A stretch of 44,326 nt of DNA from positions 1 through 44,326 of the forward strand of contig JBFMBZ010000081.1 of NCBI GenBank assembly GCA_040754615.1, read 5' to 3'. Position numbers and translations under genes: made by a program. The first letter of the stretch is position 1; each line of letters begins with the position of its first letter. This document shows positions 6,001-27,000 of the stretch, piece after piece. This DNA is from Candidatus Omnitrophota bacterium. Lineage in GTDB: Bacteria; Omnitrophota; Gorgyraeia; Gygaellales; Profunditerraquicolaceae. The notes below the pieces were generated by a model. The model was not told the origin of the DNA, searched no databases, and saw nothing but the letters and a program-made list of their open reading frames with translations.

Positions 6001-9000
6001 TTTATTAGAAGATTGCTGTAAGAGAACAGGGATTAATTCTTCCTTGATACGCAAGATAGCTTCATCGGCTTTTCCTTCATCGAATCCGCTTCCTATGTGC
6101 ATACGGCTAGAGCTGCGGATAGAATGAAAAACAGCGTCAAGCAGGGGTAGTGCCTTATCCCCTATTATTCTCCTGAATTCTTCAGACATTACCTTATATT
6201 CTTCTGTCTCAATAGGGGAGCCGGCTAGCCCTTGCCGGGAAGCGGTTACAGCAGCAATTATGGCTGCCCCAACTCCGGAGCCGTCATGCGTAAGCACCAA
6301 CCTGATCTGAGAAGCCCTCCTTTTTCCGAACATCTCCCTGAAGGCCTTTCGCATATTACGCCTGAGATCAGGATTATTTTCAAAGAGGCTTCCGTCAACG
6401 GCAACGGTATGCCGCCAGGATAAACCGGGGTTTATCCTGATTAAAATTGCTCCGTTTACAGCAGCAGTAATTCTCGCAGCCCGCTTAAAAACAATCCTGC
6501 AAACTTCACGCATCATCCGAGCCTCTTCATCAGATATATCTCCAAAAATCCTGCGTGCAACTTTGAAATCTTTTGATTTATCATTTTTGATATTTCCGGC
6601 CTGCTCACTTGTTAACGCATTTTTTCCAGCTAAGAGTTTAGGAACTTCGCCATTAAACAGATAACCTTGCAAGGTCAAATCCTTTAGGACCAAACGCACC
6701 AATTCCCCAAGATATTGCCCTGAAACCATCTTCTCTTCCAACTGCGCTCCGGGCATGCCGGACTCTTCATCGAGCATTTCGTCATACCTATTACGCCGAA
6801 GTATATTGAACCCTCCCGATTCTATATTGATAACCATTGTTGGAAAGTCATATGCGCCTATAGATTTATGGATATCTCCTGTTTTCACTAAAACGCAGAA
6901 GTTTTGCCCGGTGCCCCAGATCATAGCTGTATCGCAATTAGGATCAGAGCGCCCGCGGCAGACAAGCGTGCCTGTTGTATCATTATTAATAGAGATAATC
7001 CTGACATTGCCGAGGCCATGTTTTTTTAGTGCCTTATTAAGCAAAGCAACCACATCCTTACCTACTACGCCCCTGGCTGAGAATTCTTTTGTCCATTTTT
7101 CCAATACGCCTTTGTCTATTCCAAATTGCAGGACCGGGAAAGAAAAAGTAAACCCTCCAAACCGCATATTTTCCTTCTCTTCTTGAAGAAATTCCTTAAT
7201 GCGCTCGGCAATGGAACCAAAAAGCGCATCCGCATCTTTAGAAATCTGTTCATGGGTAAGCTTGTATTTCTTTACGCATACCTGCGGCCTGCGGTTTTTC
7301 TTAAGAGTCACTGCTAAAATGCGTAAATTAGACCCACCTAAGTCAATGCCAAGATAAGTGCCTTCTTCTTTTCCTGTCGGCTTAGCCACGTAAGTAGGCA
7401 GCATCCGAAGAGAGCTCTTTTTGCCGTTTAAACCTAGCTCCATTTCTCTGCGGAAATCGATTACTATCTGATGCAATTCGTCATTCGTTAAGGAAAAATC
7501 TTTACGGATTCCTTTCAGGGCTTGCACAACCGGCGAGCCGGCGGGGCTGCTATTCGTTAAGCCTAATTCCCTGAAAGCCTCTTTTACAATTTCCGGCTGT
7601 TCCAATTCGCTAATAGTATTAAGAATAGAACCGTGTATATTAACTGGGCTAAGCAAAATGGGAGGCAACCTGCCCCTGAACCTCATTATTTCCCTCGTAA
7701 CAGGCAATAATGGCTCGCGATTTATGAAGCTCGCTTTGCCTTTTGCCTGCTCTATCATAATGGCGCGCGGAAGGGCATCCCACGGTTTAACCATATGCAT
7801 AACCAGGCCTAATTCGCCTTCTACCAGAAATCCATCCAGCGTAGTCCGGGCTATCTCCTTTTCTAACATTCCGGTGAAGCTAAGCTTATCTTTTATGTAC
7901 TCTCTATACTTCTCCAAAGGATCTATAGATTTTCCTCCATACTCAAGTGTTCTGTGTTTAACAACTAAGGCTTTTTTAGATGCAATAATATTTAAGAGAG
8001 GAATAATTATTCTTTGGTCATTCACAAATGTTCCTTCGCCTGTAGCGAAAATCAACTTTCTCCCTTCTAAAAGAGGGGCAAAAGAAACTGCTACCACCGG
8101 CATCATAGTCTGCATATCTATGCAAACTATAGTTGTGTCAAATACCTCGCTGCCTTTGCTATACTCTAGAGTCCCGGAAAGAGGGTCTAGAATCCAAGTG
8201 TAAGGCGCTTCATCATTCCATAAAACACCAGGCGTTTCTTCCTCGCTGATGATGTTGTGGCCGGGAAAATGCGTCCTTATAATGTCGCTCAACCTCATAT
8301 TGGCGATTTTATCAGCTTCAGTATGAGTATCAGCAGAAATATCTTCCGGCCTTTTAGATTTCTGCAAATCTAAAAGGAGTTTACCTATTGTCATTGCTGA
8401 TCCAATTGCCGTATTTATGATTTCTTGTTTTATTCCTATGGGGCTGAAAGAGCCAACCGGCGAGCCGGATTTCTCTTCAAAGAATATTTTTGCTTTTTCA
8501 ACAGACCCCGGATACGGGCCAACAGCAATTTCAATCATCTTGGGGTCCTTAGGGAATGCCACATTATGCCCGCTTAGAAGAAGAATTTTGGCTCCGGGAT
8601 ATAATCCAAAAACTTTTACCCTCTCTCCCGATTTCTCATTATTTAAGTATTTATATATGGAAACAATCAACTCTCCCCTCTGGACTATCAATAATTCGGG
8701 TAATGGTAAATCAAGGGGCGTATGAATATGGGGCTTACCAACTTCGCCTGCTAACGGCGCCTTTACTCCAATCCCCAGCGGAAAAGAAGGAGTAGTAATG
8801 ACGATAAATGTGCGCGGCTCAATGTAGCGCCTTAAAACCAATAACAGGTTATCTTCTGCGCCGAATCTTTCAGGATATTCATATCCACTAAATGCCCTGT
8901 AAATCAACTTTTCCCCGGGGTTCCTTCTTGTTACAGAGTGCTCCGGTTGAGTAACCTTCAGGATAAAAGAGTTCCGCAAAGTCTCGATGCTATAGCCGCC

Positions 9001-12000
9001 AAAAGTTGTCATAAGTTCCCCTGAGAGCAAAGACAGAGTTTCTCCGTTGCTTTCCTTATCTGCCAGTGTTATAAAAGTTTTCCCCTCTTCAACATATATA
9101 ATATGCTGGAGCCCCGGCTTATTCTTTGTCCCGAAAGACGCGCCTTCTTTATGGAGGTCGGTACTAATCTCAATCGCAAGCCTTGGCGATGATAAGATGC
9201 TTCGTCTCCTGCTTTTTGAAATCAATGCTAAGACTTCATCCTTCCATAAAACCGGCTCCCATCCTTCCAACGCCGTGAAATCCGTTAATGTAACCGGGCT
9301 GCCGGAAAAGGGGGAAGGTTCTGTTTTCTTCGGCTCTAAAGGCGAGCCGGAGTGGCTATCTTTCCAGTATTTTATTCTTATTATTGTTGCTGTTGTTTGC
9401 GGATGGCTGGAGTAATGCTCACTGTTCGCAGAGAAGATGCCGCGAGTAATTATCCCAATAACGGCAATGGAAAATGCGCTTATGCAGACTACCAAAATCA
9501 ATCCTTCCGTAAACGGCGAGGCAGCAATAGCTTCTTTAAGGGTTAGATTAATTCTCTGCGCACCTATGTCAGTGCGACGGCTTGAGCCTGCGCAAGGCCC
9601 TGCCGCCGGGTTTCTGTGTACAGCATTTCCAAGCAGTTGCGCGCCAAATGAACTCATCAGTTTAAGGTAAGCTAAGGTAATCAAAATAAATGGGGACGGT
9701 TCTATTTTCTTCGGCTGCATGTTTAAAATAGAAACGTCCCTTTTGAGTAGGCGCGGAAAAAAGAAGGCATTATTTCCTGGCAAAGAAACAGCTAAAGCAG
9801 AATTGTTGGCTTTGGTGGGAGACTTGGAACTTCCGGAATCTTCCCGCGTTGTTCGGGTAACAACCATACAGCCTAAAGGCGGAGCCCTAACACGAAGGAT
9901 TTCCGAGATAGGCGACCCAGAGCGCGCTTCTTTTACCCTATACCAAACATCTTCTCGCTCCTCAAAGCCGAGCCCAACAAGAACGGTAATGGCCTCCTCA
10001 TCAGAAAACCCTCCAGCATTGTATTGCCTAAGCATCATGCCCAAACTCATCCCAAATCTGGGGTTAACCGGGAAGTCTGAATTTAGCCTGGCTTTAAAAT
10101 CCTCTAACTCCCGTTTTTTAATTCTGCCTTTTTCCTGCCAAGCTTTTCTTCTTTCCGGATCAGTCAACAATTTTTCTAACTTTTCAGGGAGCGTTTCTCC
10201 AAAAATTACCCTGATCTTTGCTTCTTCCTCGAAAATGACTGGTTCGATCATCAAAGCTGTGTTGGCGCGACTTTTAAACCATCTATGCCTAGAAAACCCT
10301 ATTTTCTTTAAATAACTGATTTCATCATCCACAATTAACCAGTCGGTAACAGTTAGCTGTGCAAGTGCAGAACTGTCATCGGCATTCATAAACGGGTAGG
10401 AATCATGCATCATGACAACTTCCCTTGTTTCAAGCAATTCATGGAGAAGAGCAAACAGCAAAATAAAAGGGAATGATTGATTGTGCAGCAATACTTCTAC
10501 CTTAGAAATCACTTTATCTTTGCAGTCATAATGAATGCCTCCCATACCGCCACACATTGAGCCATCTGGTACTAAGCGATGGTTCTTATGAGGCGGTATC
10601 TCTGCCAAAGCTATTGTTAACAAAATATTTTTTTCTAAGAAAAATTTGAATAGTTCCGGGGCCTTTTTATTAAGCCAATTTATGATGAATTCGGTTGTCT
10701 TTTCCAGCATTAGATCGGGATTGCGGAAGAAAAATGAAATCGTCTCGTAGTCGTATTTATTTCGTCCTATTGCAGATTCGATTTTTTTACGAAGACTCCT
10801 CTTGTCTGATTCAGGAATTTTATTTCTAAATTCTTGGAATAAACATCCCGCTACCGTTTCCAAGGCGCCTAACCTATTTGCCTCTTCGAGATATTTTCTG
10901 TAAGAATCCTCTTCTAAAGAAGTAAACAACATCTGAAAAGAAGAAGGAGTAATTAGGGTTGGGCTGGAAGCGGGCGATCCGGAGGAATATCCGATACCTT
11001 CTAATTCAGCTATAAATTCTCTTCGCTTGTGTTCTCTTGCCATAGTAAATACCAAACGCCAATCTTCACTGGAGTCAAATTTCATACGGAATATGGCTCT
11101 CCCGTGGGAAGATTTATATTCCCAGTCATAGGACGCAGACATTATTATTGTATGCCTTTGTTTTGCATTGCATATGACACAAAACCCTTGTTTATCATAA
11201 GAAATCTCTATGCGTCGGACTTTCTTTTTCTTATAAGAACTTATAATTTGGCCAACTCTGAGATTAGGAGTTACTAACTCGTAGATTACGATTTTTTGTG
11301 CTGTTCCGAAAAACAAATTCGGAAGAGAAATTGAAAGGGCCGGCCATTTTACTGTGTCAAATTCAACTGGGAAAAGCGTCCTTCCATACCAGAAGCCAAA
11401 CAGCCTTTCCCTGGTCTTTCCTAATTCATTGTAAAACTTCTTTCTTTCTTGCTCAATTTCCTGCTCAGTTTTCGCTCTTGGGCGAGAAGTCCCCGTTTTT
11501 TTCCTTTCTGCTCTTGCTCTTTCTCCGGCATCTTCTGCCCTACTTACCGCACCAACCTGCACTCTTTCGTCATATTTCTTGCGCTTCTCGGGATCACTCA
11601 ATACTTCATATGCTTTTTGTATCGAAAGCCACTCGTCCCCTGCTACCCCCCCACTTTCTTTAATCCTGTCTGGATGGTATCTCATAGCGAGCTTCCGGAA
11701 TGCATTCCTTATATAAACTTCGCTTGCTTGCTTAGACACACCTAATACAGCATAATAATCCTTTGAATTAGAGAAATCTGGCCTAAGGAATTGATTCTTG
11801 CCAGAGGAAGATTTTTCTTTTGGTTTTTGTTTATTGAATGCCATGAGGTAAGATAAAGCCTGCTTTAACTTCTTGAATGAAACGGCTATTCTATTCAAAT
11901 ATTCTTCAAATTGCCTGGCTAATTTATTTCCTGACTGCAGGATAACCTCTTTTGCTTTGCGCAACCCTAACGAGGCATAATGATAAAAATTAAAGCTAAG

Positions 12001-15000
12001 AGGCTCTTTTTCAGTTTCGAATGCCTCTTCTGCTTGTTGCTCCTTATCGAAAGGCTCCTGACAGGAATAAATTCTGCTAATAAGTAAGTCAAGGGTATCA
12101 CGAATAGAAGAAGAATAATTATATTTGTCTTTGGCTGCTTTAAGGGCAGGTACAAAAACTGGCCCGGTTGCAACAATAATATTGGCGGCTTCTCTAAATA
12201 ATTCCAGGTCATCTAATGCTTCTATGAGAATGGGGATAGCTGCTTCGAGGTTAATATTCACCAAGGCCCTGAGAATAAGTATGCGGATATTTCGGTCTTG
12301 CTCTTTTTCCAAAGCTTCCCTGAGATCAGGAAAGAAATCTTTAGCTTTAGGGCCAAGTAGCCCAAGAGTTTGAATAACATTTGCCTTAAGATGCGAAGAT
12401 TCGCCTCCTAATGCTTCTCTGAAGGTTGGAAAAGCAGGCTCGCCAATCTTGACCAGCTCAAACATCACCCCATAGCAAACATCCGGTCCTTTTCTTAACT
12501 CCTTTATTAACTCCTGAATACGAGGATTCTCTTGCTCTACTACCGGCGAACCGGACACTTTTGTTACGATTAATTCGCGAACGCCTTCAAGACTCCAAGC
12601 AATTGCCCAGGGAGCCCCTTCTTTATCTCTGGCCTCGTCTCTCTTTTTTGCCAGTAAACGCACCCCGGGAATTCCGGTTTTATCCGCCGCTATCATATCA
12701 GAAGGCTCATCTCCTACAAATACCAGCTGCCTGGGGGGGATGTTTTTATTTTTTAAGAGAGCTCTTAATTTCGTTTCCTTGTCTGATTTTTCAGGGGCCC
12801 ACGGAATAGCTGTGCCGGTGATAAACTTTTTGAGCCCAAAATATTGAAATAGAGGATCCAAGATGTTGGAAGATATGTGCGACACTAAATAGATTTCTAT
12901 TCCTGCAGCACGGAGTTGTTTTAAAATCTTTTCTGCGCCCGGTGATGCCTTTACTTCGCTTGTCTCGATGTAATATTTAATCCATTTCTTTATAAATGTA
13001 TTAATTGCCTGCTCAGTCCAGCTTTTTATTCCCTCCCCGGCATTCTTTGGGGCTTCCCCATTCACCTCAATAAATTCATCAACGCGTTTCTGTCTTGCCA
13101 TTCTAAAAAGCTCTCTAATCTGCGCCAAGCGGGGAATTTTCCCTTCGTTCTCCCCCGCGTATTTTTCTCCCTCTGCAAAAAATTCTCGCTCTCTTTTTGA
13201 AGACGAATCATCTTTATTATAAATAAACTTTGCTTTCGTTGGGTCGTTGCACCTTACTAAATTTAAATAAAGCGCTCCCATAAGGCGATTGACAAATGGC
13301 CGTAAGTCTTTAAGTATCGTCCCTGCCACATCAAACGCTGCTACCTTCATATTCTGGGGCTGCCTGGATGGGTTGACTAATTCAAAGACCGGAGAACCGG
13401 CTTCGGAACTGCCCGAATTTGAGCCCTCTTCAATCTCCATTAATCTTCTCAGATTTTCTATCCTCTCTTTCACTAATAAATAATCAAGAAAGGAACCAAA
13501 TTTGATTATTAAAGGAGCTCTTGCCGTTAAATTTAATTTTTGTGATTCTAGATGCATCTCCAAAGTCTCGTCAATGAATAAGGAAAACTCTTTCCAGAGA
13601 TCCTTAAGGGATTGTTTAATCGGAGAGCCGGAAGTGGTTTCTCTTAGCCTGTACCAAACGCCTTCTCGCTCCCGAAACCCTAAGCTAATAAGCGAATCGA
13701 CGATTATTCCTTCAGAAAGCCCATCAGGATTGTATTTTCGGGCTATCAAACTTAAACCCATGCCTAATCCGGGATTGACGGGAAAGACAGAATTTATCCT
13801 ATCTTTAAAAGCACTTATCTTCCGCTCTTCCTCGCCGGCTTTCTTCTCCCAGGCCATTCTCTTCTTAGAATCAACCAGTAAACCTTCCAGTTTTTCCGGT
13901 AGAGCTCCTCCAAAAACTTTTCTTATTCTTGCCTCTTCTTTAAAAATTATTTCTTCAATTCTTCTGGCTACATGAGCGCACACTTCCGGCAGCTCGTTTT
14001 TAAGCTGTCGTATTTTCTTAAAGTATCCTATTTCCTCATCCGTAATCAACCAATCGGTAACGTTTAACTTTGAAAGCAATCTAAATCCCTCTAAAGAAAT
14101 ATTCGGGTAGGAACCATAAAGTTCAGCCACATTCCTTGATTCCAGCAATTCATGAATAAGGGCATACACGCAATCAAAGGGAAATACCGCTATATGCAGA
14201 TAGACATCCACCGCCGCAACTTTTCTTTCCTTAAAATTAAAATCAATGCTGGATTTAGCCAGGCACATTCTTCCATCTTCCATTAAAAGGTGGCCATTAT
14301 AATCAGGGACTTCTGTTAGGGCGATTTGTAATGAAATCCCTTGTCCATCAAAATAGTCAAATAATTCCGGAAATTCCTCCTTAAGCCGGCTTATTAAGAA
14401 TTCAGCAGTCTTAGAAATTAACAATTCCCGGTCCTGAAAGAAAAAGGAAATTATTTTGTAATCGTATTGATTCTGGCTTACGGCAGATTCAACTCGTTGA
14501 TGAAGCCTCTTTTGTCCTGACTCGGGGAGCCTCTCCAATAAATATTCCATTATCGGCTTCAAAGCGCCTAAGCTATTTGCCTGCTCCAAAAACTTTCTGC
14601 AGGCTCCTTCTTCTTTCGGATTCAACAAAATCCCAAAAACGGGCTGAACGATAAGAGAGGAGCTGGAGAGGCCCTCCTCAAAGAATACTTTTGCTTTTTC
14701 AACAGACCCCGGATACGGGCCAACCGCAGAGCTGGCCTTCTTTAAAACAAATACCGCCGGCGGCAAGGGGTGGAATCTACCTTTAGATATGCCGACGAAT
14801 TGCTTGCTCTCAACCTCAAGCCCAGGTAACTCAAATTCTTTCTGCCATTCTTCTTCGCTATGTAAGTTAGAGGCTAGCGGAATATTCGTGTTGCCCGTAA
14901 CTACATGGTTAGCCAGCCAATCAATAATAATTATTAGGTCTTTCAGCTCCCTGGGATCTAAATCCCTTAAATAATTAACCAACTCCTCTTCATTATTGAG

Positions 15001-18000
15001 CGGTTCTTGCTTTAATAAGGCATTCTCTATGACTATTATCCGTCCTTTTGGCTTGAGGATTCTTTTTGCTTCCAAAAGAATTAAATCCATAGCTTCAATT
15101 GCAGTTCTGGAGAGAAGGTCGTTTAATATAACTTTATCCGCGCTTGCTTCTTCCAGTGGAATATTACCGGGGGTTTCCTGCAGGATAAAAGACGTGTTAT
15201 CCTGGCCCCGGTATTCCGGGCCTCTATCGCGATAGTCAGGTATAATTGTTCCAATAAACCAGGTGTCCCTTATATTCCTTGCAATAGCAATACCCAATCT
15301 ATCGTCTTCGCACCCGATATCCGCGACAATATCACCTTCGGAAATTAGGCCTTTAATCATATTGAAAGTAGCCAGGTAACGCGCATCCGCCTTATAATTT
15401 GCATAAATTCCATGGTATTTGTTTTCCCTGCTAATCCAATAAAAGCCTCCCTTATAAATTGCCTGGCGTGCTTCATCTAAAGAATTACTCTTCTCAAGTA
15501 AAATATTAACCAGCTTTCTTACTTTTCTAGTGGGGATACCGAATTGCCCGTAGCCAAAAGTTAATAATCTTATCAGAGCATCCTGCAGGCAAGGGCTTCT
15601 CTCCAGGGATTCAAGCAAATCGCTTCTGACAAGAGGCGAACCAGAGCGGGAACCGTAGATTACATTTAACACGAGTTGCGTATATTTCGCTACATCTGTT
15701 GCATAGTTATCATATAAACCGAAGGGGTAATCAGGCAAAGAAAATTCCCCGTGAGAATCATTGCCTGGCATACCGGGAAGGACACGTATAGGATGACTCC
15801 CATAAAATGGGTGGGACATATTTAATTTTTCCACGTCAGATGAAAGGGCTTCCTGTAAACCATTATTTCTTACTTTGTTACTGAAATATTCCAGCCCCAG
15901 GAAACTGCCTGCCGGCAGCGCTCCATGAATAACCGCCATCGGGATAGCCCACTCCAAGATATCCTCCAGCGTCCCCGCGCTATTCACTTTCCTTTCATTA
16001 TCCCTTATCTCGTTAGGATGGGCGATGCTGAATTTTGCCTTGCTGATTTTTATGAAATCCAGCAGCTCGTACCAGGTAAGGTAATATTTTTTCTGCAGAT
16101 TATAGAAGTAATCATCAAGGCCGGTAGGCTTAAATTTCTTATACCAGACCCCCTTGGCAAAAGTTATGCCTTCTTCTTCTAATCTTTCTCTGTGCCTGGA
16201 AAACATTGCATCAGAAACCAGAGAGCCGTATAATCTTGATAATTTTGGAGACCGGTTTATTCTCTGCAAATCCTCCAATTCAACGCTCAAATCCGGGAAT
16301 CTTCGGTTGGCTTCAGCAAGCAATATTTCAACTGCTTCGTTTCTTTTGGCATCAAGCACCTGCATTTTATTTAAAAGGCCTCTCGATGCCAACTCCTGGT
16401 TTTTCTTAATGAAAGAGGACCTGAACAATTCGGGAATATACACTAAGAAATGCACCTCTACCCCAGCGTAAAACACCGTAAATTCTGCTCCGGGAATTAA
16501 TATTAGCTCCGGAATAAAGCTTCTTGAAAGTTGATTGAATTTAGCTATCTCTCCGTTAATTATCCTGACTGCCCGCAGAGCTTCCCAAGAGGTCAATACA
16601 TCGTGATTGGTGATAGAGAAAGCCTTTAACCCAAGCGTAAAGGCTAAATACGCTTTATAAACCGAGGTATCAAACCCGTCGCTATTGAAGTCGTGGCTGT
16701 GCAAATCGCACTGCCCTTCGCAGGGGCGCGGTAATTTAATTTCGGGCAAGACTATGGGCAAAATCGTCCGCAAAGCCCTTAATCTTAAACCTTCCCATTC
16801 GCTACCCACCACTCCTGACATAATTCTATTAGCGGCAACTCTTCTTACGCCAAGGCCTGTTGAATCTAAATCGGATTCAAGTCTATTAATTATTGCTGGA
16901 TCCCGAATAGTATGAGCCTTCCCATCTTCCACAGGTGAGGCAGCAATAGCTTCTTTAAAAGTTAAATTTGTCCTCTGCCCCACTGGAGAGCCGGATTTAT
17001 TACGGTTTAAATTGGACCCCCTAGATGAGCCTGGTAGAAGTATTGGTTCGAAAATGAAAGGAGGACTCGCATTTCCTCCACTTATTATGCTTCTTGCCTG
17101 CTCTATAAAACGTCTATCCCCCGCCTTATTAATGGCTCTTTCAAGTGCCCCAACGATCTCTCTCACATGCTGAACTTCAAGCTTGGTTCGCTCATACTCC
17201 TTTCGGTAGCCTGCATCCTTCCTAACTAAGGCATCAACTTGAGCATTCAGAAGGCTGCTTATTTCGTTCAAGCTCCTTATATCGCCATCTCTAATCCAGA
17301 GAAACCGCTTTTGAATAAGGGGGTCCTTCATCGCGTCTTCTGGCCCACTATAAATTCTATATTTATATGGGTGGACACTAAGCAGCCAGTTTGCGTGCTC
17401 TACTTCCTTATGTATTCTGCTTAAGCTTTCGCTTAAGTAAGCCTCCCCTAAAAGGGCTGCAAAGAATATTTCACTAAGTAATACATAGGGGCTGGCATGA
17501 GCAAAGTATTTCCTGAAAGATTCATCAACGAAGCCTTGATCCGGAAGCTCTTCTTCCAATAGTTCATGAAAGATAATTGTTAATCGGTTATGCCTATACG
17601 CGGAATCCAGTTTTGCTGCTCTCTCATAATTGATTCTATGAAAATAGGTTCCTGGCTTTATGATTTCGGGGTGAATCGAAGCGTGGAAAGGGAAATCCCG
17701 GATTTCAGGGGCTATACTATTAATATTCGGGATGGCGGCTAATAACTTTTCACTCGTTAATTTTCCTTTAATTCGATTTTTTTTCGCAAACCCGTCTCTT
17801 GCCTCTTGGACTTTTTGATAATCCCGCACCGTGAATATAAAATTTCTTGTCAAGTCCGCATAGCGTTTATCCTCAATCTCTATAAAACCGATTGCCCTCG
17901 CGAGCTCAAAGAAGTCCATTGCCATAAGCTGCTCAGCGGCCCCAATGGCTGACAATCTCTCTTTGGCCCTTCGAATAGCTGCTAAATAATCATCTCTCTG

Positions 18001-21000
18001 TTTAAAGGGATGGTAATGATTCCTGCGCGACAAAGCCGATTCGCTATCCTCATAATCTCGCTCTTCCATCGGAGAGCCGGAAATGTAACTTGCACTCCAA
18101 GAATCACTGTTTCCGGGCAGAATCCGAGAACCTGCAAAAATTGTATCTGCTCTTTGCGCACCTATGTAGGGTAGACGGCCTGTGATTGCGCAAATCACAG
18201 CCGCCAGAGTCCTGCCTACCCAGCCATTAAGCTGTGTGCCGAAGGTACTCATCAGCTTAAGATAAGCCAAGGTAACCAAAAGAAATGGGGACGGTTCTAA
18301 TTTCCCCGCCTCCCCTCTTAAAATAAATAATAGGGAGGGTTCTAATTTAGGCACGGAGCCGAAGAAAATATAACCGTCCCCATTATTCAAAGGCATAGAG
18401 TGGCGCTTGGGAAGAGTGCCTTGTGAAAATGGGCTGCTTGCGTCTTCCTGCTTTGTTGTAACATGCACAACCGCGCCGAAGGTAAGCGGGGAACCGGCTG
18501 AGAATTTAGCGCCAAGATAGTTAACAAGCTTATAATCAGCTCCGTCTTTTATGGCCATAAGAGCTCTAAATACCTGTTCGAGATCCTCAGGATTAACATC
18601 CCTTCCTCCTAAGCCATAGATGTAATTAACCAAATGCGGAGCCTGCATATTTGCATAGGCATCATGGATATCCGAAAAGAGAGGCCCGGTACTTTTTCCA
18701 AAGGATATGCTGCGATCTAACACAGCTATTGCTTTTACATTCTTGAAGGCTTCAACAATGGCCTGCGTTGGGAAAGGCCTGTAAACCCTTATCTTGAGTA
18801 GTCCGGCCTTTATCCCCCGATTGCGCAGTTCATCTATCACCATCTTGGCAGTGCCGGCTGTAGAACCTATGAGCACCATCGCCACCTCAGCGTCATCAAG
18901 ATGGTATGCCTCAAATAGGCCGTATTTCCTTCCGGTTAATACCGCATAGGCCTGACTTACATCTTGGATAACACGTAAAGTGTTCATTAAAAGCTCCTGC
19001 TGCTTAAGCCTGATCTCCATGCAATATGGCGGTAAGGCTACGGGGCCAAGAGTAATGGGATTATCGGTATCCAAAAGGTTGATGACTGGCTCAAATTCCC
19101 CGATAAAGTCTCTTACCGCTTTATCAGCAATTATTTTTGCAGGTTGAGCTTTATGGCTGGTAATAAAGCCATCCTGCCAGGACATAACCGGAAAACCGGC
19201 CTTTTCAGCAATACTTACGGCCATAATGGTATTATCGTAAACTTCTTGGGGATTCTCAGAGCAAATATTTATCCAGCCAGCGTCCCTGGCGCCCATACCG
19301 TCGGTATGGTCGCAGTGGATATTTAAAGGCGCATTTAAGGCCCTGTTTACCAGAGACATAACAATGGGCAACCTCATCGCAGCGGCAATAGGAAGGACTT
19401 CCCACATATAAGCCAGGCCCTGGGAAGAAGTAGCTGTCATGACTCTTGCCCCTGCCGCAGCCGCGCCGATACAGAAGCTCATTGCGCTGTGCTCGGATTC
19501 AACCGGGACAAATATCGTTTGTACCTCTCCATGAGCAACGAATTCAGCGAAGAACTCTATAATTAAAGTTTGGGGAGTAATAGGATACCCGCCCACCACA
19601 TAGGGGTCTATCTGGCGCATAGCTTCAGCCGCAGCAGCGTCTCCTATTAAGGCTCTGGTTGGAATTCCTTCCTCTTGCGGGTTAAATATTTTAACGAGCC
19701 CTTCCCTTTGCGGAATAACACCCTTTAGCTCATTGTGGGCTCTCTCAACTGCCCTTACGTTAGCTACGACAACTTTCTCAGGGAATTTCTTGGAGAATTT
19801 TTCTCGCATCTCTCTTGTAAGCGCTTCTATAGGCATTAATCCGGTTGCCTTCAATAGTGCCCCCAGCAAGGTTGTGTTGGGAACGAATTTATTAAGCTCA
19901 TCCATAGATATCATTGTAGCGTCAACAGTAAGGATATGAATATTCCTGCCATTTGTATTCAGTTTTTCCCTTAAGAGAGGCTCTTCTTTATTGGTATTTA
20001 TTAAAACAATCCCATCTTCCTTAATGCCTTCGCATACATCTACGATATCAAGAAGGGTATCATCTAAAACAATCACAACATCCGGAATTTTTACCTTGTC
20101 CTCTCTTCTAATAGGCTTACTGCTTATACGGTTAAAACCAAACATAGGAGCGCCTGTGCGCTCAAGGCCAAAATCAGGAAAACCTTGCGCAAAATAGCCT
20201 TCGTGAATTGCTGTTTCGGCTAAGAGCTCGGCAGCAGTCATTGCTCCCTGCCCGCCCCTTCCGTGCCACCGGATCTCTATAGTGTCTATTGGAGAGGCGG
20301 AAGATTGTTTGTCGCATAACTTTTGAAGCCCATCCCAATTTTTATCTATTTGTTCTTGGAGAGCGGAAACGATTTCCGGGTTTTTCTTAAGATGGCTGAA
20401 GCGGCCTTGCTTAAAGAGCCACTCATTCACCGGAATTTTTTGCTTTGGCGTATGGGTTATGCGCCAGATGCCATTTTCAACTTCATAGAGAGGCCAAATA
20501 CCACATTCTACTGCCTCAGCGGTTATTTTCATCCCCTCCTCAACCGGCGTTTTCCATCCACGAGGACAGGTTGAGATGACATTGATAAAGCTTGAGCCTG
20601 GAACATGTAGCGCTTTTCGCAGTTTAGTAAGCAAATCTCTCCAGTAGAATGGCGCAGCCTGGGCAATGTAGTCAATATTATGGGCAGCCATAATCTTAGT
20701 TAGATCTTTGCTTTGCTGGATTTTCCCAAAGATAACCTTGCCAGCGGGGGTAGTAGTGGTAGCTCCGCCAATGAGCGTTGCTCCTGAGCGCTGGTTGCCG
20801 GTATTTTGGTAGGCCTGGTTATTGTAGCAAATAGTTAAAAGCCTATGCCCCCGTTCTACAGCTCCTGAGAGGGCCTGTAAACCAATATCATATAGCCCGC
20901 CATCTCCTCCAAAGGCAATAAAGTTGATATTTTTCTCTTCGGGTATCCTTCTGCGCAGCTTTAAAGCCCTATAAGCTGTTTCTGTTCCGCTTGCATTTGC

Positions 21001-24000
21001 AGCTACGTTCGGGAATGCATTATGGATTAAAGGGACTCTCCAGGCAGTCTGGGGGAAAATAGTAGTAACTACTTCCATGCAGCAGGTGGCTACTGAGACA
21101 ACCGTATCCTTACCGGAAATAAGAAGCGCTAATTTAAATATTACGGGAGCAACACAACCAGGGCAAGCCCTATGGCCTGAACTTAATAGCTCACCTCTCT
21201 TAGACAGGCTTTTTAGATTTAATGGTTCATCAAGCGAAAGAAGCAAACTTCTTTCTTGAGGCAAGGCTTCTTTTTTGAGTGGTTCTGGTTTAGGTAGATC
21301 ACTTTCGGACAACATCTGTATTACCGGCCCGCCCTTAGCAGGGTCTTTTTTCGGGCACTGGGCTGCACAGATACCACAACCTTTGCAGTGGTCCAGGTCT
21401 ATTCCCGTAACTCTTCCTTCTTTTACCTTTATTGCCATGTCCGGACAGAAGAGCCAACAGGTTAAACAGTGAGAACACTTTTCAGGATTGAATATCGGGC
21501 GGTTGATTCTCCATGAGCCTGTAAAATAATCTTCCGCATTCCCGGGAGTAGAAATCAATCCGGCGTATTCCTGAGGGTCTAAGTCTATCGGAGAGCCCCC
21601 AATAGAAAAATCTTCCGGCCTAAAGTCAAAAGGCCTGGTATCTCGAATGACTTCCATAATAGGCTTGCTATCTTCAACGGCCTCAATAATTGGCCTTACG
21701 TGCGACTGCAAAGGCTCTTTTAGCTTCCCTAAAATTTCTCTTACAACCTTAACGTCAATTAATGCTGCAGTCGCAAGATGATACATTGCCCTGGTAGCCT
21801 CATTGTAATAGTCATACACCATGCCGAGATTAGCATGGGCTCTGGCATATTTAGGATCGAGTTGAATCGCTCGGCGAAAGACAACCCCTGCTTTTTCAAA
21901 GTCTCCTAATTCCGCATAAGCTGCTCCCAGGTCACTATTTGTAATTGGATTGTCTGGGAATATTTCTAAAGATGCCTTAAATGCTTCCACTGCTTCGGAA
22001 AATTTCTTTAAATTTAGGTAGGTTACTCCCATATAATAATAGGCCTGGGGGTCGCTGGGGTTACTCTCAATGATTTTTTGGTAACAGTCAAGCGCCTTGT
22101 CAAACTCTTTGAGAAGCCTATAAACCCTGCCGAGGTTATACAATATGTTATTATCGGAATAAAATTCTGCGGCCTTTTCCCATACCTTTCTTGCTTTTTC
22201 CAGATTCCCGGAGTCGCCGTATATGGCTCCGATAATATTGTAGATGTGGGGATTGAAGGCGTAAGAGGAATCAATTACGTTTATCTCCGGATAGGATGCA
22301 TTTAATGAGTCTTCGTCAAACTCCTGAATTTCCGCAGTTGAGAAATTACAAAGTAGAAGCTTGTCAGTTGCTTCAACAGGAACAATAACAAAGGAAACCC
22401 CCTTACACCTTGCCACCGCCGCTGCAAAGCCGAAGAGTTTCAAGAGAATATACGCTAATTGAGCTAAGCTGTAAGAAGTTAAATATTTCCCGAATTCCTC
22501 TTTGTCCTTCCTGGGAATTATTTCTGCAGCCTGTAATAAATCAATAATATCTCTTGAAACGAAGATGTCATCCGTAACAAGCGAATTTACAAGGCTCTTA
22601 AATATCGGCAAAAGGTCTTTTTGACTGAAAGAAAGAAACAGCTTCTCAATTGTTCTTTTTGCCTCTTCTACATCAAAGATATTTATGCCCTGAGTTTCTT
22701 TAAAATTAATTTCCTGTAAAAATTGGATAATTGCTTCTTTAAGCTGCGGGATGTTTTCATGCGGATAGCCTAACTCATAGAGTATCATTGTTAAGCCATT
22801 TTCATTTTCAATAGGCGAGCTGGAAAGCGCTTTCGCGCAGGGGAAAATAAAAAATTCCTTGCCTGCTGGTAATAGCGGAGGCCCGGTAGTAAATACCGAA
22901 CTTATGTAATTACCCAAAACAGGCAAGGTTTTTCTTGATAAGTAAAAACTGGACTTTGGACTTAACGAATTTAGCAAGTTGCGAGCTGACCTCCACCCAC
23001 CCGTCGTTACTGGTTTTGCCCTGGACCGAACCGTTTGGCTGAATAAGGAAGTCGAATTCATACCACCAGCTGGGGTGGTGCGCGAAGGCAAAGATTCCGT
23101 CTTTTCTGAGTAAAATCCGCGTAACCTCAAGGTCCTGGAAATGGTAGGTATTGAACATTTCATTACCTCCTGGTTAAAATTGTTATTAATAATTATAACC
23201 GGCGAGCCGGACTGAAGGTTAAACGCAGCTACTAATTCTTCTGCCGGAGGAAATCGCTCTTTAACTGAAATATCCGGGTTGCATTTTAGCATCTTCTCCT
23301 CTTTTTCAGGATAAAGGAGCGCCAAGGTATAAATTTTACTACCAGGAATTCTTGCCCGAACTTTTCTCGCTGCTTCCATCTCTCCGCAGCCATCTCCTAT
23401 TATTAAGGCATTGCTGCCGCGATTACCCGGTTCATTTAAGATTAATTCAATGGCTGTCTCCTTATTGAATTCTCCCTTAAATGACGGCCATGAAAGCGCT
23501 CCATAAACAGCCAAGAAATAATCCCCAAGGCCAAGGGCCTTAACTAAATCAAGTGTAAGATAACTGTTAGCGGTAAGGATATACTGCTTGGCACCCCTCT
23601 TGTGCAATTCTTGAATAAACTGCATTACTCCTTCAACGAGGTATTGGCTTAATTTCTCTTTCAGTTCTTCTTTGTTATCCTTAATATACTGCTTCTGCAT
23701 TTCAATGTATTCACCTAACCAAAATTCGGCATCGTGTTTCTTAGTAGTGCCATCCTGGCTCATCTCTTTGATGATATCCCTATAAATATCTATATCCGGC
23801 CGTCCGAGATGCTTCTTATAAATTTTATTGGCCTCTAAAAATTGTTCTGCTTCACCAAGAGGCGCATCATTAGATAAAATGCGCGCTATAATAGTTGTCT
23901 GCATATTCTCCCAAGCTTTCGGCGGGACTTTAAAAATAGTAAGGTCCCAATCCCATATAAATACCTTGAGCTGCCCCTCAATAGGCCGATGCACAGTAAC

Positions 24001-27000
24001 GAGCTGCTTTTCAACCGGCGAGCCGGCTTTCCCCTCTGCGTAGGGGGAGAATGAAATGTAGCGGGCCGCTGCGCAGAGATTCAGTTCCCACCAGCCACGG
24101 AAGGTAAACTGATTCCCTATAAATTCACGCAGCGACCCAAATTCTCCTGCAATATTATTCTCAATGCTGGCCGGAGAAGCGGAATTATTCAAACCCGCCC
24201 ATACCAAGACCATCGCAGTTTTTTGAAATGGAGACATATCATCTTCAAATACAGGCGTTTCTTGTAAAGTAACCCAGCCAAATCCTCTTTGAAGCAAAGC
24301 TATTCTTAAATCTTTCTTTGATATCCTAACCGCAGGAAGAAAAGGATGCTGATAGGAATAATCACAAGGATATTCTGTAATAAGCATTAACCCGTTTCTC
24401 TTCAGTAATGATTGGGAACTTACTAAATAAGATAAATCCAAAGAAACAAATCTTCCTTTTTGCTGCCAATATTCAAGCGCGCCCAAACATTCAGAGAATA
24501 ACACCAAATCAAATTGGCCGTTGGTTAACAGCGATTTTCTATATTTATGAATCTGCGTAGCATCTGCAGTTAAAGCGGAGATTCCTTTTCTTTTTAGGAT
24601 TTCAACGAAATCATTATCGATTTCAACTGCCTTAACTAAATGGCCTTCTTCTTTTAATACCTCCTCTAATAAGCCTCTTCCGGAGGCAACTGACAATATT
24701 AAAAGCCTTCTGCCTTTTGTTACATTTTCTATCTGAGCCAATAGATATTCCCGGTATGCCCCGCAAACTGATAATTTACTTAAAGCAGCGCTCTTATTCA
24801 TACTGCGAATCTTCTCTAAAATATTTCCAGTGGCATCTGGATCATTTATCGCAGAACTGGAATAAATATTTTGTCCTCGCTTAGCCTTACTTATGATTTG
24901 TTCTTCAGTAACCGGCGAAGCAGCTACGCCTTCATTAAGGAATGCCTCCAAGGCTACTTCAGGATAAATTTCAATCTCCGCAGAGCCGATATAATTGCTG
25001 ATTAACTTCACTCCCGGCATTCTTCTCCAAATCTCCAAATATTCATTTACCTGCACATATAATTTTAAGCTTGCATAATCGTTTTTAAGAAGATAGCTAA
25101 TCAACTGTTTATATAAGAGCTCCTCGTATTGCCTGTTTCTGTACTCTCTTCTCACAAATATCCAACTCACCTCTTTTTCTTCATAAGGACCAACGAGGAA
25201 CCCTCCGGCAAAATCTTTTGTCCTGTTATCAATTGCTACGGCTTGTATGTAGCTTTCTATTCCCGAAGGTATAATCATACAGGGCCACAAGGGATTCTCT
25301 AGATAGCATGCGTGTTCCAATGCTTCTAACTCCGGCCTGTCTTTTGCTTCCCTGATATCTATTCCGCTAAGGGCCCGGCTAAACTGGCGTAAATATTCTG
25401 CGGCAGTAATCCGTGCCTCCAATATACGGCTTAAACGCACGGCGTTTGCCTGATACTGCGCAAAATCACCCGGCCTTTGCCAATACACCTCTAAGGCCTT
25501 CATCATTGCCCGTAAATACGCTTCAGTTGTGCCGTCTTCCGGCGTAATGGTATTTCCTTCTCCGACCACATCATAATTTATTGGTATGCCCTGTGCCTGT
25601 AATAAACCTTCATTCCAGGGCGGGCTGAATTGTAAGCCGGCGCAGGCTCCGATATTTGCTTCTGTATATCCGGCAGCTTCGGTATTCTCAGCAGAATACT
25701 GAACCTGAACATCGGTTGCCGGCAATAAAGCCTTTTGCTGCTCTAAATTAAACCAACCCACTAACCTGAATACTCCCGGATAACCTTTCTTTGCCAGCCT
25801 CTTAGAAATGGCTTCCAAATGATTGTATAAATTATAGCTTTCTTGGGTCTCCTGCACTTTCCCGTAAATCACAACTTGTATTCCTGCCTTGACCAAATCC
25901 TCAATATCTGTTTCTGCAAACCTCACCTTTTCCTCTACGAGGCGGCCGGAATAAGAAACCACCGGCTTATTCGGGTCAAACCCTAACCTTTCTTTAGCCA
26001 CTCTCTTTACCGCCATTACGTGCTCTGCAGTTACATAATCATACTCTGCCTCAGGGAATAATTCTGATAATATTTGCCTGAATACCTTTGAAGTTGCCAG
26101 GCGGTCATCCCCGTTTGATACAGCGATAAGGTCCACATTAGGGTCGTATTTGTTTACTAAATCTACGTGCCTTGCCGCCACCCCGCCTCTCCAGTGGGCA
26201 GTGCGTAGCCCAGCACTGGTAAAATCTGTTACTCTCACACCATCATCGTTTGGATGCACAAACAATTTTTCAAATAGGCCATCAACCGGTATCTTGAACC
26301 TGTTTACTACCAAATCCCTTCCTTCTCTGTATTTAAAATACCCCCTGTTTCGGATGGTATGCGTAGTGTCCGCCAGCAAAGCGCCCTGCAATGCTATTAT
26401 CTCCCATTCTTTAAAGGCAAACATTACGCTTAAAGGAGCAAGTTGCGCATCGTTAATATGGATAACCGGAGGAAGCCACTCTTCGGGATGCGCGGAAAAT
26501 TCCTGCGCTTCTACCATGCTAATCAATTCCAGGGCGGCCCTTGAGAAAAACATAGTAAACTCTTCCATGGAAACGCGGTTATTCTGTGTATTGTAAGCAT
26601 AAAGCATATTGGTATAGTAAGCGCCTTCATCGCGCAAGAAATACCCTATAATTTCCGCAGGGGTTTTTCCTTCATAATCAATAACGCTGACTCTTTTCCC
26701 TTCTATGTCTATATCATATCTGGCAAGCTCTCTCATATCGGTTATGCCAAAGTTGGCGTAATTGAGCCTTTCTAACTGCCCCTGCTCATTACGGCCAATC
26801 ATATAGAAGGGCTCAATATGCCTTATTTCCAAATATCCCCCTGCCAATTCCTTCATTGCCGTCCCGTGATACTGCATTACTCTGCCTAATCCACCTGCCG
26901 GATTCCAGATCTCAGAGCTAATCTGCCAGAGCCTGCGGCCGATTAGCTTCGGAGCGTGCATTAACAGCCAGTCTGCGGGTATATTCCTGTCCAGCATTAA

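Follow-up and report, generated by a model that had tools for sequence, protein, structure and literature searches.

A REP/REPIN-family repeat inside the spacers of a giant gene from an Omnitrophota bacterium

We analysed a 44,326-nucleotide stretch of DNA from Candidatus Omnitrophota bacterium (GenBank assembly GCA_040754615.1, contig JBFMBZ010000081.1; hereafter, the window), in which a 24-mer, GGGGACGGTTCTATTTTCTTCGGC, occurs in both orientations within a single giant open reading frame (ORF). The 24-mer belongs to a widespread family of repetitive extragenic palindromic (REP) elements built around the core GGGGACGGTTC/GAACCGTCCCC. We consider it likely that the 24-mer is one REP unit, or one arm of a REP doublet forming a hairpin (REPIN), that resides in spacers of the giant ORF as a passenger and has been decaying since its duplication. 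Copies at 9692-9715 (plus strand, no mismatch), 9311-9334 (plus strand, two mismatches) and 18358-18381 (minus strand, one mismatch) are translated in the giant frame as PKKIEPSPF, PKKTEPSPF and NGDGYIFFG, respectively, exactly as reported in an initial annotation of this DNA made from the sequence alone. The number of copies expected by chance is 0, and none of 100 shuffled sequences contained a match. The window contains five REP units, all of them within two spacer segments, A and B:

1-44325, minus strand: host gene, one stop-free frame of 14,775 codons (amino acids), open at both ends of the window
9292-9921, minus strand: spacer segment A, between the junctions SGSPI (9907-9921) and SGSPV (9292-9306)
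9689-9744, minus strand: REPIN-type hairpin A, with the loop 9716-9724 between its arms
9725-9740, minus strand: sense 5' arm of hairpin A, a truncated REP unit, GGGACGTTTCTATTTT
9692-9715, minus strand: sense 3' arm of hairpin A, a full REP unit, GCCGAAGAAAATAGAACCGTCCCC, read as PKKIEPSP and followed by the T-rich flank ATTTATTTT
9427-9531, minus strand: strongest hydrophobic (transmembrane-like) helix in all 14,775 amino acids, LILVVCISAFSIAVIGIITRGIF
9311-9334, minus strand: solitary REP unit with two mismatches, read as PKKTEPSP, without a partner arm
18067-18498, minus strand: spacer segment B, paralogous to A and in the same orientation
18284-18384, minus strand: REPIN-type hairpin B, 101 nt, three REP units
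18358-18381, minus strand: sense 5' arm of hairpin B, the 'inverted' copy, read as GDGYIFFG
18333-18348, minus strand: internal degenerate unit of hairpin B, read as KLEPS
18287-18310, minus strand: sense 3' arm of hairpin B, read as GKLEPSP, the counterpart of 9692-9715
Repeat-spanning peptides in the window: KKIEPSPF, GDGYIFFG and KKTEPSPFSGSPV
Hairpin type of the REP family in the window: written AAATGGGGACGGTTCTATTTT

Refolding reproduced the hairpin that had been described at 9693-9740: the unit at 9692-9715 pairs with 9725-9740 through 15 pairs across a loop of about 16 nt, and the sense RNA folds with an energy of -18 kcal/mol (z-score, z = -4.8; 0 of 200 shuffles folded as well). The U-rich run noted after this hairpin on the sense strand is present, as CCCC-AUUUAUUUUGAUU, and the hydrophobic segments noted downstream include the strongest helix of the window, which sits between hairpin A and the solitary REP unit. 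The description of a separate inverted copy held only in part; the sequence exists at 18358-18381, but it is not independent, being the 5' arm of hairpin B (-45 kcal/mol, z = -4.2). Two directly oriented paralogues, 9515-9745 and 18110-18385 (identities of 79% over 96 nt and 71% over 69 nt), each hold a hairpin at the same place, and segment A has one additional solitary unit.

The solitary unit at 9311-9334 has no significant fold (z -1.7). Within 9292-9351 it forms a 10-residue piece (SGSPL-EPKKTEPSPF-SGSPV) between two junctions separated by only 15 codons, an arrangement that resembles either a separate module or an insertion into a junction that was later duplicated.

The repeat family and its transposase genes

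We scanned one genome per species with the pattern GAAGAAAAYAKAACCKTCCCC. Among these species-representative genomes, the 21-mer pattern had 15 matches in 14 stretches. Six of the 15 lie in five Omnitrophota metagenome-assembled genomes (MAGs), and the labels of the other MAGs include Planctomycetales, Syntrophaceae, Proteobacteria, Blautia and Aminicenantes, among others. For seven matches the complementary arm lies just upstream, giving perfect hairpins of the form AAAT-GGGGACGGTTCTATTTT...AAAATAGAACCGTCCCC-ATTT; these are intergenic, being located upstream of a tRNA-Cys gene, upstream of uvrA, or past gene ends. Doublets were found at loci L002, L006, L007, L010, L011 and L014, and singlets at L003, L004 and L009. 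The singlet at L004 is an exact 24-mer in the Omnitrophota MAG JACQQV010000028.1, located 58 nt beyond the stop codon of a 2,115-amino-acid gene, between convergent genes. L003 is an Omnitrophota contig consisting of one 1,915-codon frame with GSSPL junctions, in which the 21-mer directly follows a junction and is read in a different frame, as GEENRTVPIHF. The same DNA is thus read in three ways, as KKIEPSP, GDGYIFF and EENRTVP, and because of this we conclude, from sequence comparison, that the 24-mer is a nucleic-acid element and not a peptide motif. The initial annotation had argued from conservation in both orientations that selection on the protein could not be the explanation, and the intergenic 21- to 24-mers elsewhere, together with the other frame in L003, bear this out.

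We also scanned metagenomes with the pattern GGGGACGGTTC-N14-44-GAACCGTCCCC, and found at least 120 contigs with the hairpin, from termite gut, rumen, digesters, groundwater and other sources. These hairpins share an invariant 11-nt core, GGGGACGGTTC or GAACCGTCCCC, in the middle of each arm, with variable words inside and outside of it (86 distinct flank words). The words differ from contig to contig but complement each other across the two arms, so that the variable positions covary. The arms are at least 25 nt long (an 11-nt core with 7 nt outside it and at least 7 nt inside it), and the folds have z-scores of -4.2 to -5.3. Among 123 distinct hairpins, the inner seven positions form Watson-Crick pairs in 85-95% of cases and the outer seven in 70-83%, as compared to 24-61% in a control in which arms were shuffled among hairpins. 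Tandem arrays of GTCCCC plus a word (13-mers), with several same-word copies per contig, are common (L050, L081, L085, L102, L112), and 648 kb of sequence contains another 30 exact cores at distances of over 150 nt from the seed hairpins (0.3 expected). Host contigs range from 29 to 72% GC, with MAG labels from at least five phyla, and outside the window the family is mostly extragenic. The absence of further copies elsewhere, which the initial annotation had named as part of a refutation, is thus not what was seen in other genomes, where copies proved plentiful.

The core GGGGACGGTTC is invariant among loci L027-L157 (for example, L050 5963-6021, L102 5521-5640, and L149), while the stem words vary by contig. 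Two differently labelled MAGs, represented by L011 (CAYSSF010000192.1) and L014 (JAHIMW010000116.1), are identical through the REPIN hairpin and diverge at once after it; therefore, the hairpin marks a rearrangement or recombination boundary. Viral contigs contained 12 single-arm matches and no palindromic matches. We rejected a phage origin, the viral matches being single-arm only and some of them unrelated G.U-containing terminators ending in GGGGACGGTTCTTTTTTT. A text-string search of the literature for the core sequence returned only unrelated primers, none of which was named as a repeat.

An association with transposase genes of the kind that mobilise REP elements was found at several loci. 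In L102, an IS200-like Y1 transposase gene has hairpins 10 nt and 64 nt from its ends, followed by a tandem array. Genes resembling those for REP-associated tyrosine transposases (RAYTs) are flanked on both sides by GGGGACGGTTC hairpins in L102, L147, L149, L156 and L157, all of which are Bacteroidales-like. Their products match Pfam PF01797 (Y1_Tnp), and their best NCBIfam match is NF047646, REP-associated tyrosine transposase. The L102 transposase has 6,445 homologues at E <= 1e-10, some of which are labelled 'REP element-mobilizing transposase RayT' by JGI. All four homologues examined at 60-87% identity (L147, L149, L156 and L157) are flanked on both sides by GGGGACGGTTC elements, with about eight copies in 8.8 kb in L149 and several copies in each of L156 and L157. 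Genes for homologues at 53-61% identity, as well as the RAYT-like gene of L013, are flanked by the related cores GGGGTCAGGCCCC, GGGGTCAGACCCC, GGGGACTGTCCCC and GGGGTCAGGTCTC. Among the first 134 loci, a RAYT gene was found beside the hairpin only in L102, plus L013, where the flanking repeats have a variant core. The flanking of RAYT genes on both sides, as read from these loci, is the defining arrangement of REP/REPIN-RAYT systems (PMC3116915, PMC3337134, PMC5581495). Among the three explanations offered in the initial annotation (a REP- or MITE-like palindromic insertion in frame, MITE denoting a miniature inverted-repeat transposable element; a pause signal; and an RNA processing site), it is the first, in the form of a REP/REPIN family with flanked RAYT genes at five loci, that these data support; a terminator or pause signal and an RNA processing site are secondary possibilities.

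The element inside the giant gene

The following course of events would account for the presence of the repeat in the window. A REPIN of the Omnitrophota-type (TATTTT) subfamily may have transposed into, or been captured in, a permissive spacer, where its presence would have been tolerated, a full REPIN being free of stop codons in four of six frames and the spacers being under little protein-level constraint. The spacer with its REPIN would then have been duplicated within the gene, yielding segments A and B. Both copies would now be decaying, A having lost part of the distal arm and the arms of B having diverged without compensation. The T-rich flank of the family (CCCC-ATTT-TTTT) would code for the first residues, PF[I/L]L, of the hydrophobic stretch. 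The element would be translated as part of the protein, and any effects of the RNA hairpin (ribosome or polymerase pausing, conditional termination, protection of mRNA 3' ends) would be a side effect of its presence and not the cause.

The reading frames of the family are consistent with this account: the consensus arm contains a stop codon (TAG) in one of six frames, such that a single arm is open in five of six and a full REPIN in four of six. Comparison of segments A and B also shows how the hairpins have changed. The distal part of the 5' arm is gone in hairpin A. In hairpin B, the 5' arm has a single mismatch to the 3' arm of A, and forms 19 Watson-Crick and two G.U pairs over 24 positions with its own partner. 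Because the 5' arm of B matches the 3' arm of A better than it matches its own partner, the distal stem of B is not being maintained, and the arms have diverged without compensating changes.

We compared the coding sequence of the two segments by the ratio of nonsynonymous to synonymous substitution rates (dN/dS). Over 28 codons, from the 3' arm through EPSPF(I/L)L(I/V)TLAYLKLMS(S/T)FG, dN/dS is 0.27 and the differences at codon positions 1, 2 and 3 number 8, 1 and 8, indicating that this stretch is translated and constrained; the constraint is probably for hydrophobicity. Over the next 25 codons dN/dS is 0.95, with 10, 10 and 9 differences by codon position, indicating that these codons are neutral at the protein level. 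In codon usage, none of the other five frames scores as well as the giant frame in segments A and B, although its score there is below the gene mean.

Nothing in segments A and B except the hairpin parts resembles other genomes or loci, and we therefore rejected a larger mobile element spanning the segments. Neither the segment A peptide (221 amino acids) nor an 839-amino-acid span including both neighbouring modules had a match among 5.8 billion proteins, the protein of the window itself being absent from the matches too, and so no orthologues were available for a covariation test; the neighbouring modules had no Pfam match. A search of segments A and B for embedded genes in alternative frames yielded only short ORFs and a 198-codon antisense ORF without a family match. 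The latter, at 9719-10315 on the plus strand, is ATG-initiated and starts within the loop of hairpin A; it is probably spurious, given its poor codon score and the lack of a family match. No curated RNA family (Rfam 15), tRNA or tmRNA matched the window at gathering scores, and hairpin B had only sub-threshold, miRNA-like Rfam matches, as expected of any long hairpin. A hammerhead ribozyme, considered for the sequence CTGATGAG that is conserved in A and B, was rejected; there is no Rfam match, and because the differences fall at third codon positions this stretch is coding.

Several observations weigh against the view that the repeat is a decaying REPIN passenger. The basal 10-13 bp of hairpins A and B are intact in both paralogues, and both paralogues keep the hairpin directly upstream of the stretch under purifying selection (dN/dS 0.27); intact basal stems and a conserved position would also be expected of a functional RNA structure. 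No orthologue of the giant gene was found, which makes insertion indistinguishable from capture of a former intergenic region. Copies in the source organism are known from the 44.3-kb window only, and the RAYT genes from other genomes only; the association with RAYT genes was seen in Bacteroidales-like contigs, and not in Omnitrophota or for the TATTTT subfamily. Lastly, the RAYT-like proteins score 59-63 bits on NF047646, below the curated cut-off of 80 bits.

The giant gene itself is a chain of enzyme modules with about 35 short junctions, [S/A/G][G/A/S]SP[V/I/L] or SSSI, between them, and a six-frame ORF survey of the window found no second frame with a 300-codon stretch. Pfam modules include NAGPA, methyltransferases, two UDP-glucose pyrophosphorylase-like modules (UDPGP), GT5/GT1 glycogen-synthase-like modules, HAD hydrolases, TPR, HEAT repeats, a DnaJ domain, inositol monophosphatase (IMPase), hexokinase and RelA/SpoT, as well as the delta, beta, gamma and alpha parts of pyruvate:ferredoxin oxidoreductase (all four PFOR subunits). 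In its module content, the host gene matches the multi-enzyme giant proteins described for Omnitrophota. The modules are otherwise ordinary cytoplasmic enzymes, and only one strong transmembrane-like helix was found. The region described in the initial annotation (9292-9740) sits in one of the few inter-junction stretches that are not enzyme-like.

We made several further observations on the host gene. For the 31 SP-type junctions in the window ([S/A/G][G/A/S]SP[V/I/L]), conservation of the DNA exceeds what the peptide requires: the Ser codon is TCG at 39% of junctions as compared to 8% gene-wide, and the Pro codon is CCG at 68% as compared to 32%. Typical junction DNA reads TCC GGC TCG CCG GTT, the core of which, CCGGCGAGCCGG, is a near-palindrome. 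Recent common descent of the junctions, recombination at them, or a site acting at the level of DNA or RNA could explain this bias. The gene also contains two copies (9908-10474 and 13619-14185) of a module of about 350 amino acids to which no function was assigned; DNA identity is 70-74% across the repeats detected. A 55-nt stretch coding for VGPYPGSVEKAK(I/V)FFEE is 95% identical between two module ends (8473-8527 and 14674-14728). A piece of spacer A, G(A)QR.NLT.KEAIAASP, is found again at 16930-16995 (9515-9559 as compared to 16934-16978). Another spacer, listed here with examples of the junctions, is the least coding-like of the whole gene:

8455-8469, 7528-7542, 23197-23211 and 24013-24027: examples of SP-type junctions
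22777-23214, minus strand: least coding-like spacer of the whole gene, by codon scores

This spacer contains AGGAGGTAATGAAATG, with an AGGAGG ribosome-binding site, followed by an 82-codon ORF (22910-23158, minus strand; MFNTYHFQDLEVTRILLRKDG...) in the +1 frame relative to the giant frame. The +1 frame scores as coding-like (0.27) and the giant frame scores 0.0, although the latter stays open for about 130 codons. Neither the spacer nor its ORF has a match in Pfam or Rfam. Because the spacer keeps the AGGAGG site and the 82-codon +1 ORF, absorption of foreign or intergenic DNA seems to occur in the host gene.

Other explanations for the repeat

Segments A and B could instead be former intergenic regions, each with a REPIN serving as a bidirectional terminator, that were absorbed when neighbouring genes fused into the giant ORF. 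This would bear on the origin of the spacers only, and leave the identity of the element unchanged. We regard such a capture as possible but doubtful. It would be consistent with the gene-end positions of the subfamily elsewhere, with A-rich and T-rich flanks; with the sub-average codon scores of A and B and their lack of homologues; with the protein-level neutrality of part of the spacer; and with the spacer at 22777-23214, whose retained AGGAGG site and ORF in another frame resemble absorbed DNA. However, we saw no relic stop codon or start signal beside the hairpins in A or B. Moreover, the REP unit in L003 comes directly after a junction motif, with a module next, and the solitary unit at 9311-9334 stands alone between two junction motifs, arrangements that look more like insertion into, or joining at, junctions.

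Alternatively, the hairpins could have been exapted as RNA signals, in which case the REPIN-derived structures would be kept for their action on the giant transcript, as pause sites, as intrinsic terminators whose action is conditional on translation, or as barriers that halt exonucleases and so stabilise upstream mRNA segments. Such signals could split the >44-kb transcript into units, or link translation with the insertion of the next helix into the membrane. An RNA-hairpin role for the element, as a pause, terminator or mRNA stabiliser, is possible; that the hairpins have been retained for such a role, we consider unlikely. In favour of such signals, the sense hairpins fold very stably (-18 and -45 kcal/mol; z = -4.8 and -4.2), a U-rich tract comes after them, and the basal stem and the position upstream of a conserved hydrophobic stretch are kept in both paralogues. 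REP elements of Escherichia coli stabilise mRNA and attenuate transcription. REPs and mRNA turnover are also brought up in PMC3479197. On the other hand, divergence in the distal stem of B is uncompensated, and A lacks part of an arm. The U-rich tail is the generic flank of the REP subfamily, and hence is not evidence of a signal that evolved for the giant gene.

Comparison with intrinsic terminators was similarly divided. Both hairpins have a GC-rich stem base, GGGACG/CGUCCC(C), followed by a U-tract, AUUUAUUUU in A and AUUUCUUUU in B. However, neither has the compact loop of 3-8 nt found in terminators, the loop of A being 16 nt and the interior of B branched, and a simple terminator scan flagged neither hairpin because these loops are too long.

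A second hairpin in each segment also bears on a possible role of RNA structure:

9575-9608, minus strand: second hairpin of segment A, with 13 pairs and a UGCGC loop, outside the REP family
18174-18205, minus strand: second hairpin of segment B, the same 13 pairs as in A

This hairpin, which has a GGCGGC stem, lies about 85 nt downstream of the REPIN hairpin, in the stretch where the peptide is neutral (dN/dS ~0.95). All 13 pairs are kept between A and B, with three pairs changed on both sides (G.U to U-A, C-G to A-U, and C-G to U-A), and one G.U pair fits the sense strand only. These double changes would favour a signal in RNA, but with only two sequences the control is weak (the observed value was equalled or exceeded in 63 of 500 shuffles), and the same double changes could also arise by template switching within palindromes. 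We rejected the second hairpin as another repeat family, there being no other copy in the window or in 157 loci.

A broader proposal is that REPIN-type repeats are recurrent building material and punctuation of Omnitrophota giant genes. Repeats would enter at near-palindromic junction DNA, TCCGGCTCGCCGG, their T-rich flanks would supply sequence coding for membrane helices, and, through their hairpins, a transcript of >44 kb would be split into stretches that are stabilised, paused or terminated independently of each other. We consider this proposal improbable. Finally, the suggestion that PKK[I/T]EPSPF is conserved as a peptide, perhaps as the positively charged flank beside a membrane helix, and that the inverted copy is a coincidence, could draw on the four KxEPS-like peptides in A and B and on the purifying selection acting on the stretch that begins with the motif, but it is refuted by the chance statistics (23 of 24 bases identical in the inverted copy, with 0 expected), by the intergenic copies of the same DNA in other genomes and by its different frame in L003, and with no protein homologues found we assign it next to no probability.

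Comparison with known systems

If the 24-mer is indeed a REPIN passenger, its occurrence in both orientations within one ORF is explained by a known mechanism, and no new RNA element is needed. REP/REPIN repeats, which are extragenic by definition, could then lie in frame within giant genes, in spacers where they are read through; where one gene fills tens of kilobases, such spacers may be among the few places for REPINs to settle. The spacers are in part like non-coding DNA, lacking homologues, being partly neutral as protein, and holding mobile repeats; this has implications for the growth of giant genes and for the question of their translation as a single chain. A by-product of the analysis is a REP family with the core GGGGACGGTTC and an associated RAYT clade, spread over very different genomes.

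REP/REPIN elements with RAYT genes have been described in Escherichia, Pseudomonas and Stenotrophomonas (PMC3116915, PMC3337134, PMC5581495, PMC3479197). The present family resembles those systems in having a short imperfect palindrome, inverted doublets that form a hairpin, and some solitary units, both in the window and at other loci; in its many dispersed and mostly intergenic copies, clusters and tandem arrays in other genomes; and in the Y1 (IS200-like) transposase gene with repeats on both sides at the five Bacteroidales-like loci. Unlike classical REPs, it has the core GGGGACGGTTC and the feet (A)AAT-GGGGAC ... GTCCCC-ATT(T), without the GTAG/CTAC of the enterobacterial and pseudomonad classes. 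The element belongs to a different REP class, and the GTAG/CTAC foot does not define REPs generally. Unlike the lineage-specific REPIN populations described, the same 11-nt core extends over genomes of 29-72% GC with labels from at least five phyla; if true, one REP core common to RAYT systems over such a range and several phyla would contradict the view of REPIN-RAYT systems as lineage-specific and vertically inherited. In contrast to extragenic REPs, all copies in the window are inside the 14,775-codon frame and presumably translated. Outside the core, the 7-nt flanks are complementary in inverted orientation (70-83% Watson-Crick) instead of being direct target-site duplications, and therefore a MITE derived from an insertion sequence is disfavoured.

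SPRITE, from Streptococcus pneumoniae, is a terminator-like dispersed repeat (PMC10969869). The present family shares with SPRITE and with intrinsic terminators a GC-rich stem base, flanking A- and T-runs, a bidirectional appearance and, usually, a position at gene ends, whereas the hairpins in the window have long loops and lie in the middle of an ORF.

Giant multi-enzyme proteins have been described in Omnitrophota (bioRxiv 10.1101/2023.11.21.568195; bioRxiv 10.64898/2026.06.07.730766), and the host gene resembles them in its GT5 glycogen-synthase-like, GT1, TPR, HEAT, hexokinase and other sugar-metabolism modules, occasional transmembrane helices, and one very long ORF. Unlike the proteins described, the spacer and its neighbouring modules in the window have no database homologues. 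In a term search, the word 'linker' occurs in neither of the two papers and 'hairpin' does not occur in the 2026 preprint, and repeats or hairpins within the genes are apparently not mentioned there.

A functional analogy is with Rickettsia palindromic elements (RPEs), which are about 100-150 bp long and lie in frame in protein-coding genes (Ogata et al. 2000, as summarised in PMC10969869). In both cases, a selfish palindrome is located in frame within an ORF, leaves the frame open, adds a peptide, and occupies a permissive site. RPEs differ in being, by that description, found only in Rickettsia, without a link to RAYT genes, and in having a different core; the elements described here are 56-101 nt long and reside in inter-module spacers of a giant gene. 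The kind of element (REP/REPIN) is thus already known, as are in-frame palindromic repeats, from Rickettsia. By comparison, the REP class with the core GGGGACGGTTC, its spread over very different genomes, and its residence in the spacers of Omnitrophota giant genes appear to be new, going by the string search of the literature and the term search of the two giant-gene papers, and the window would provide a second example, beside the RPEs of Rickettsia, of palindromic repeats carried in frame.

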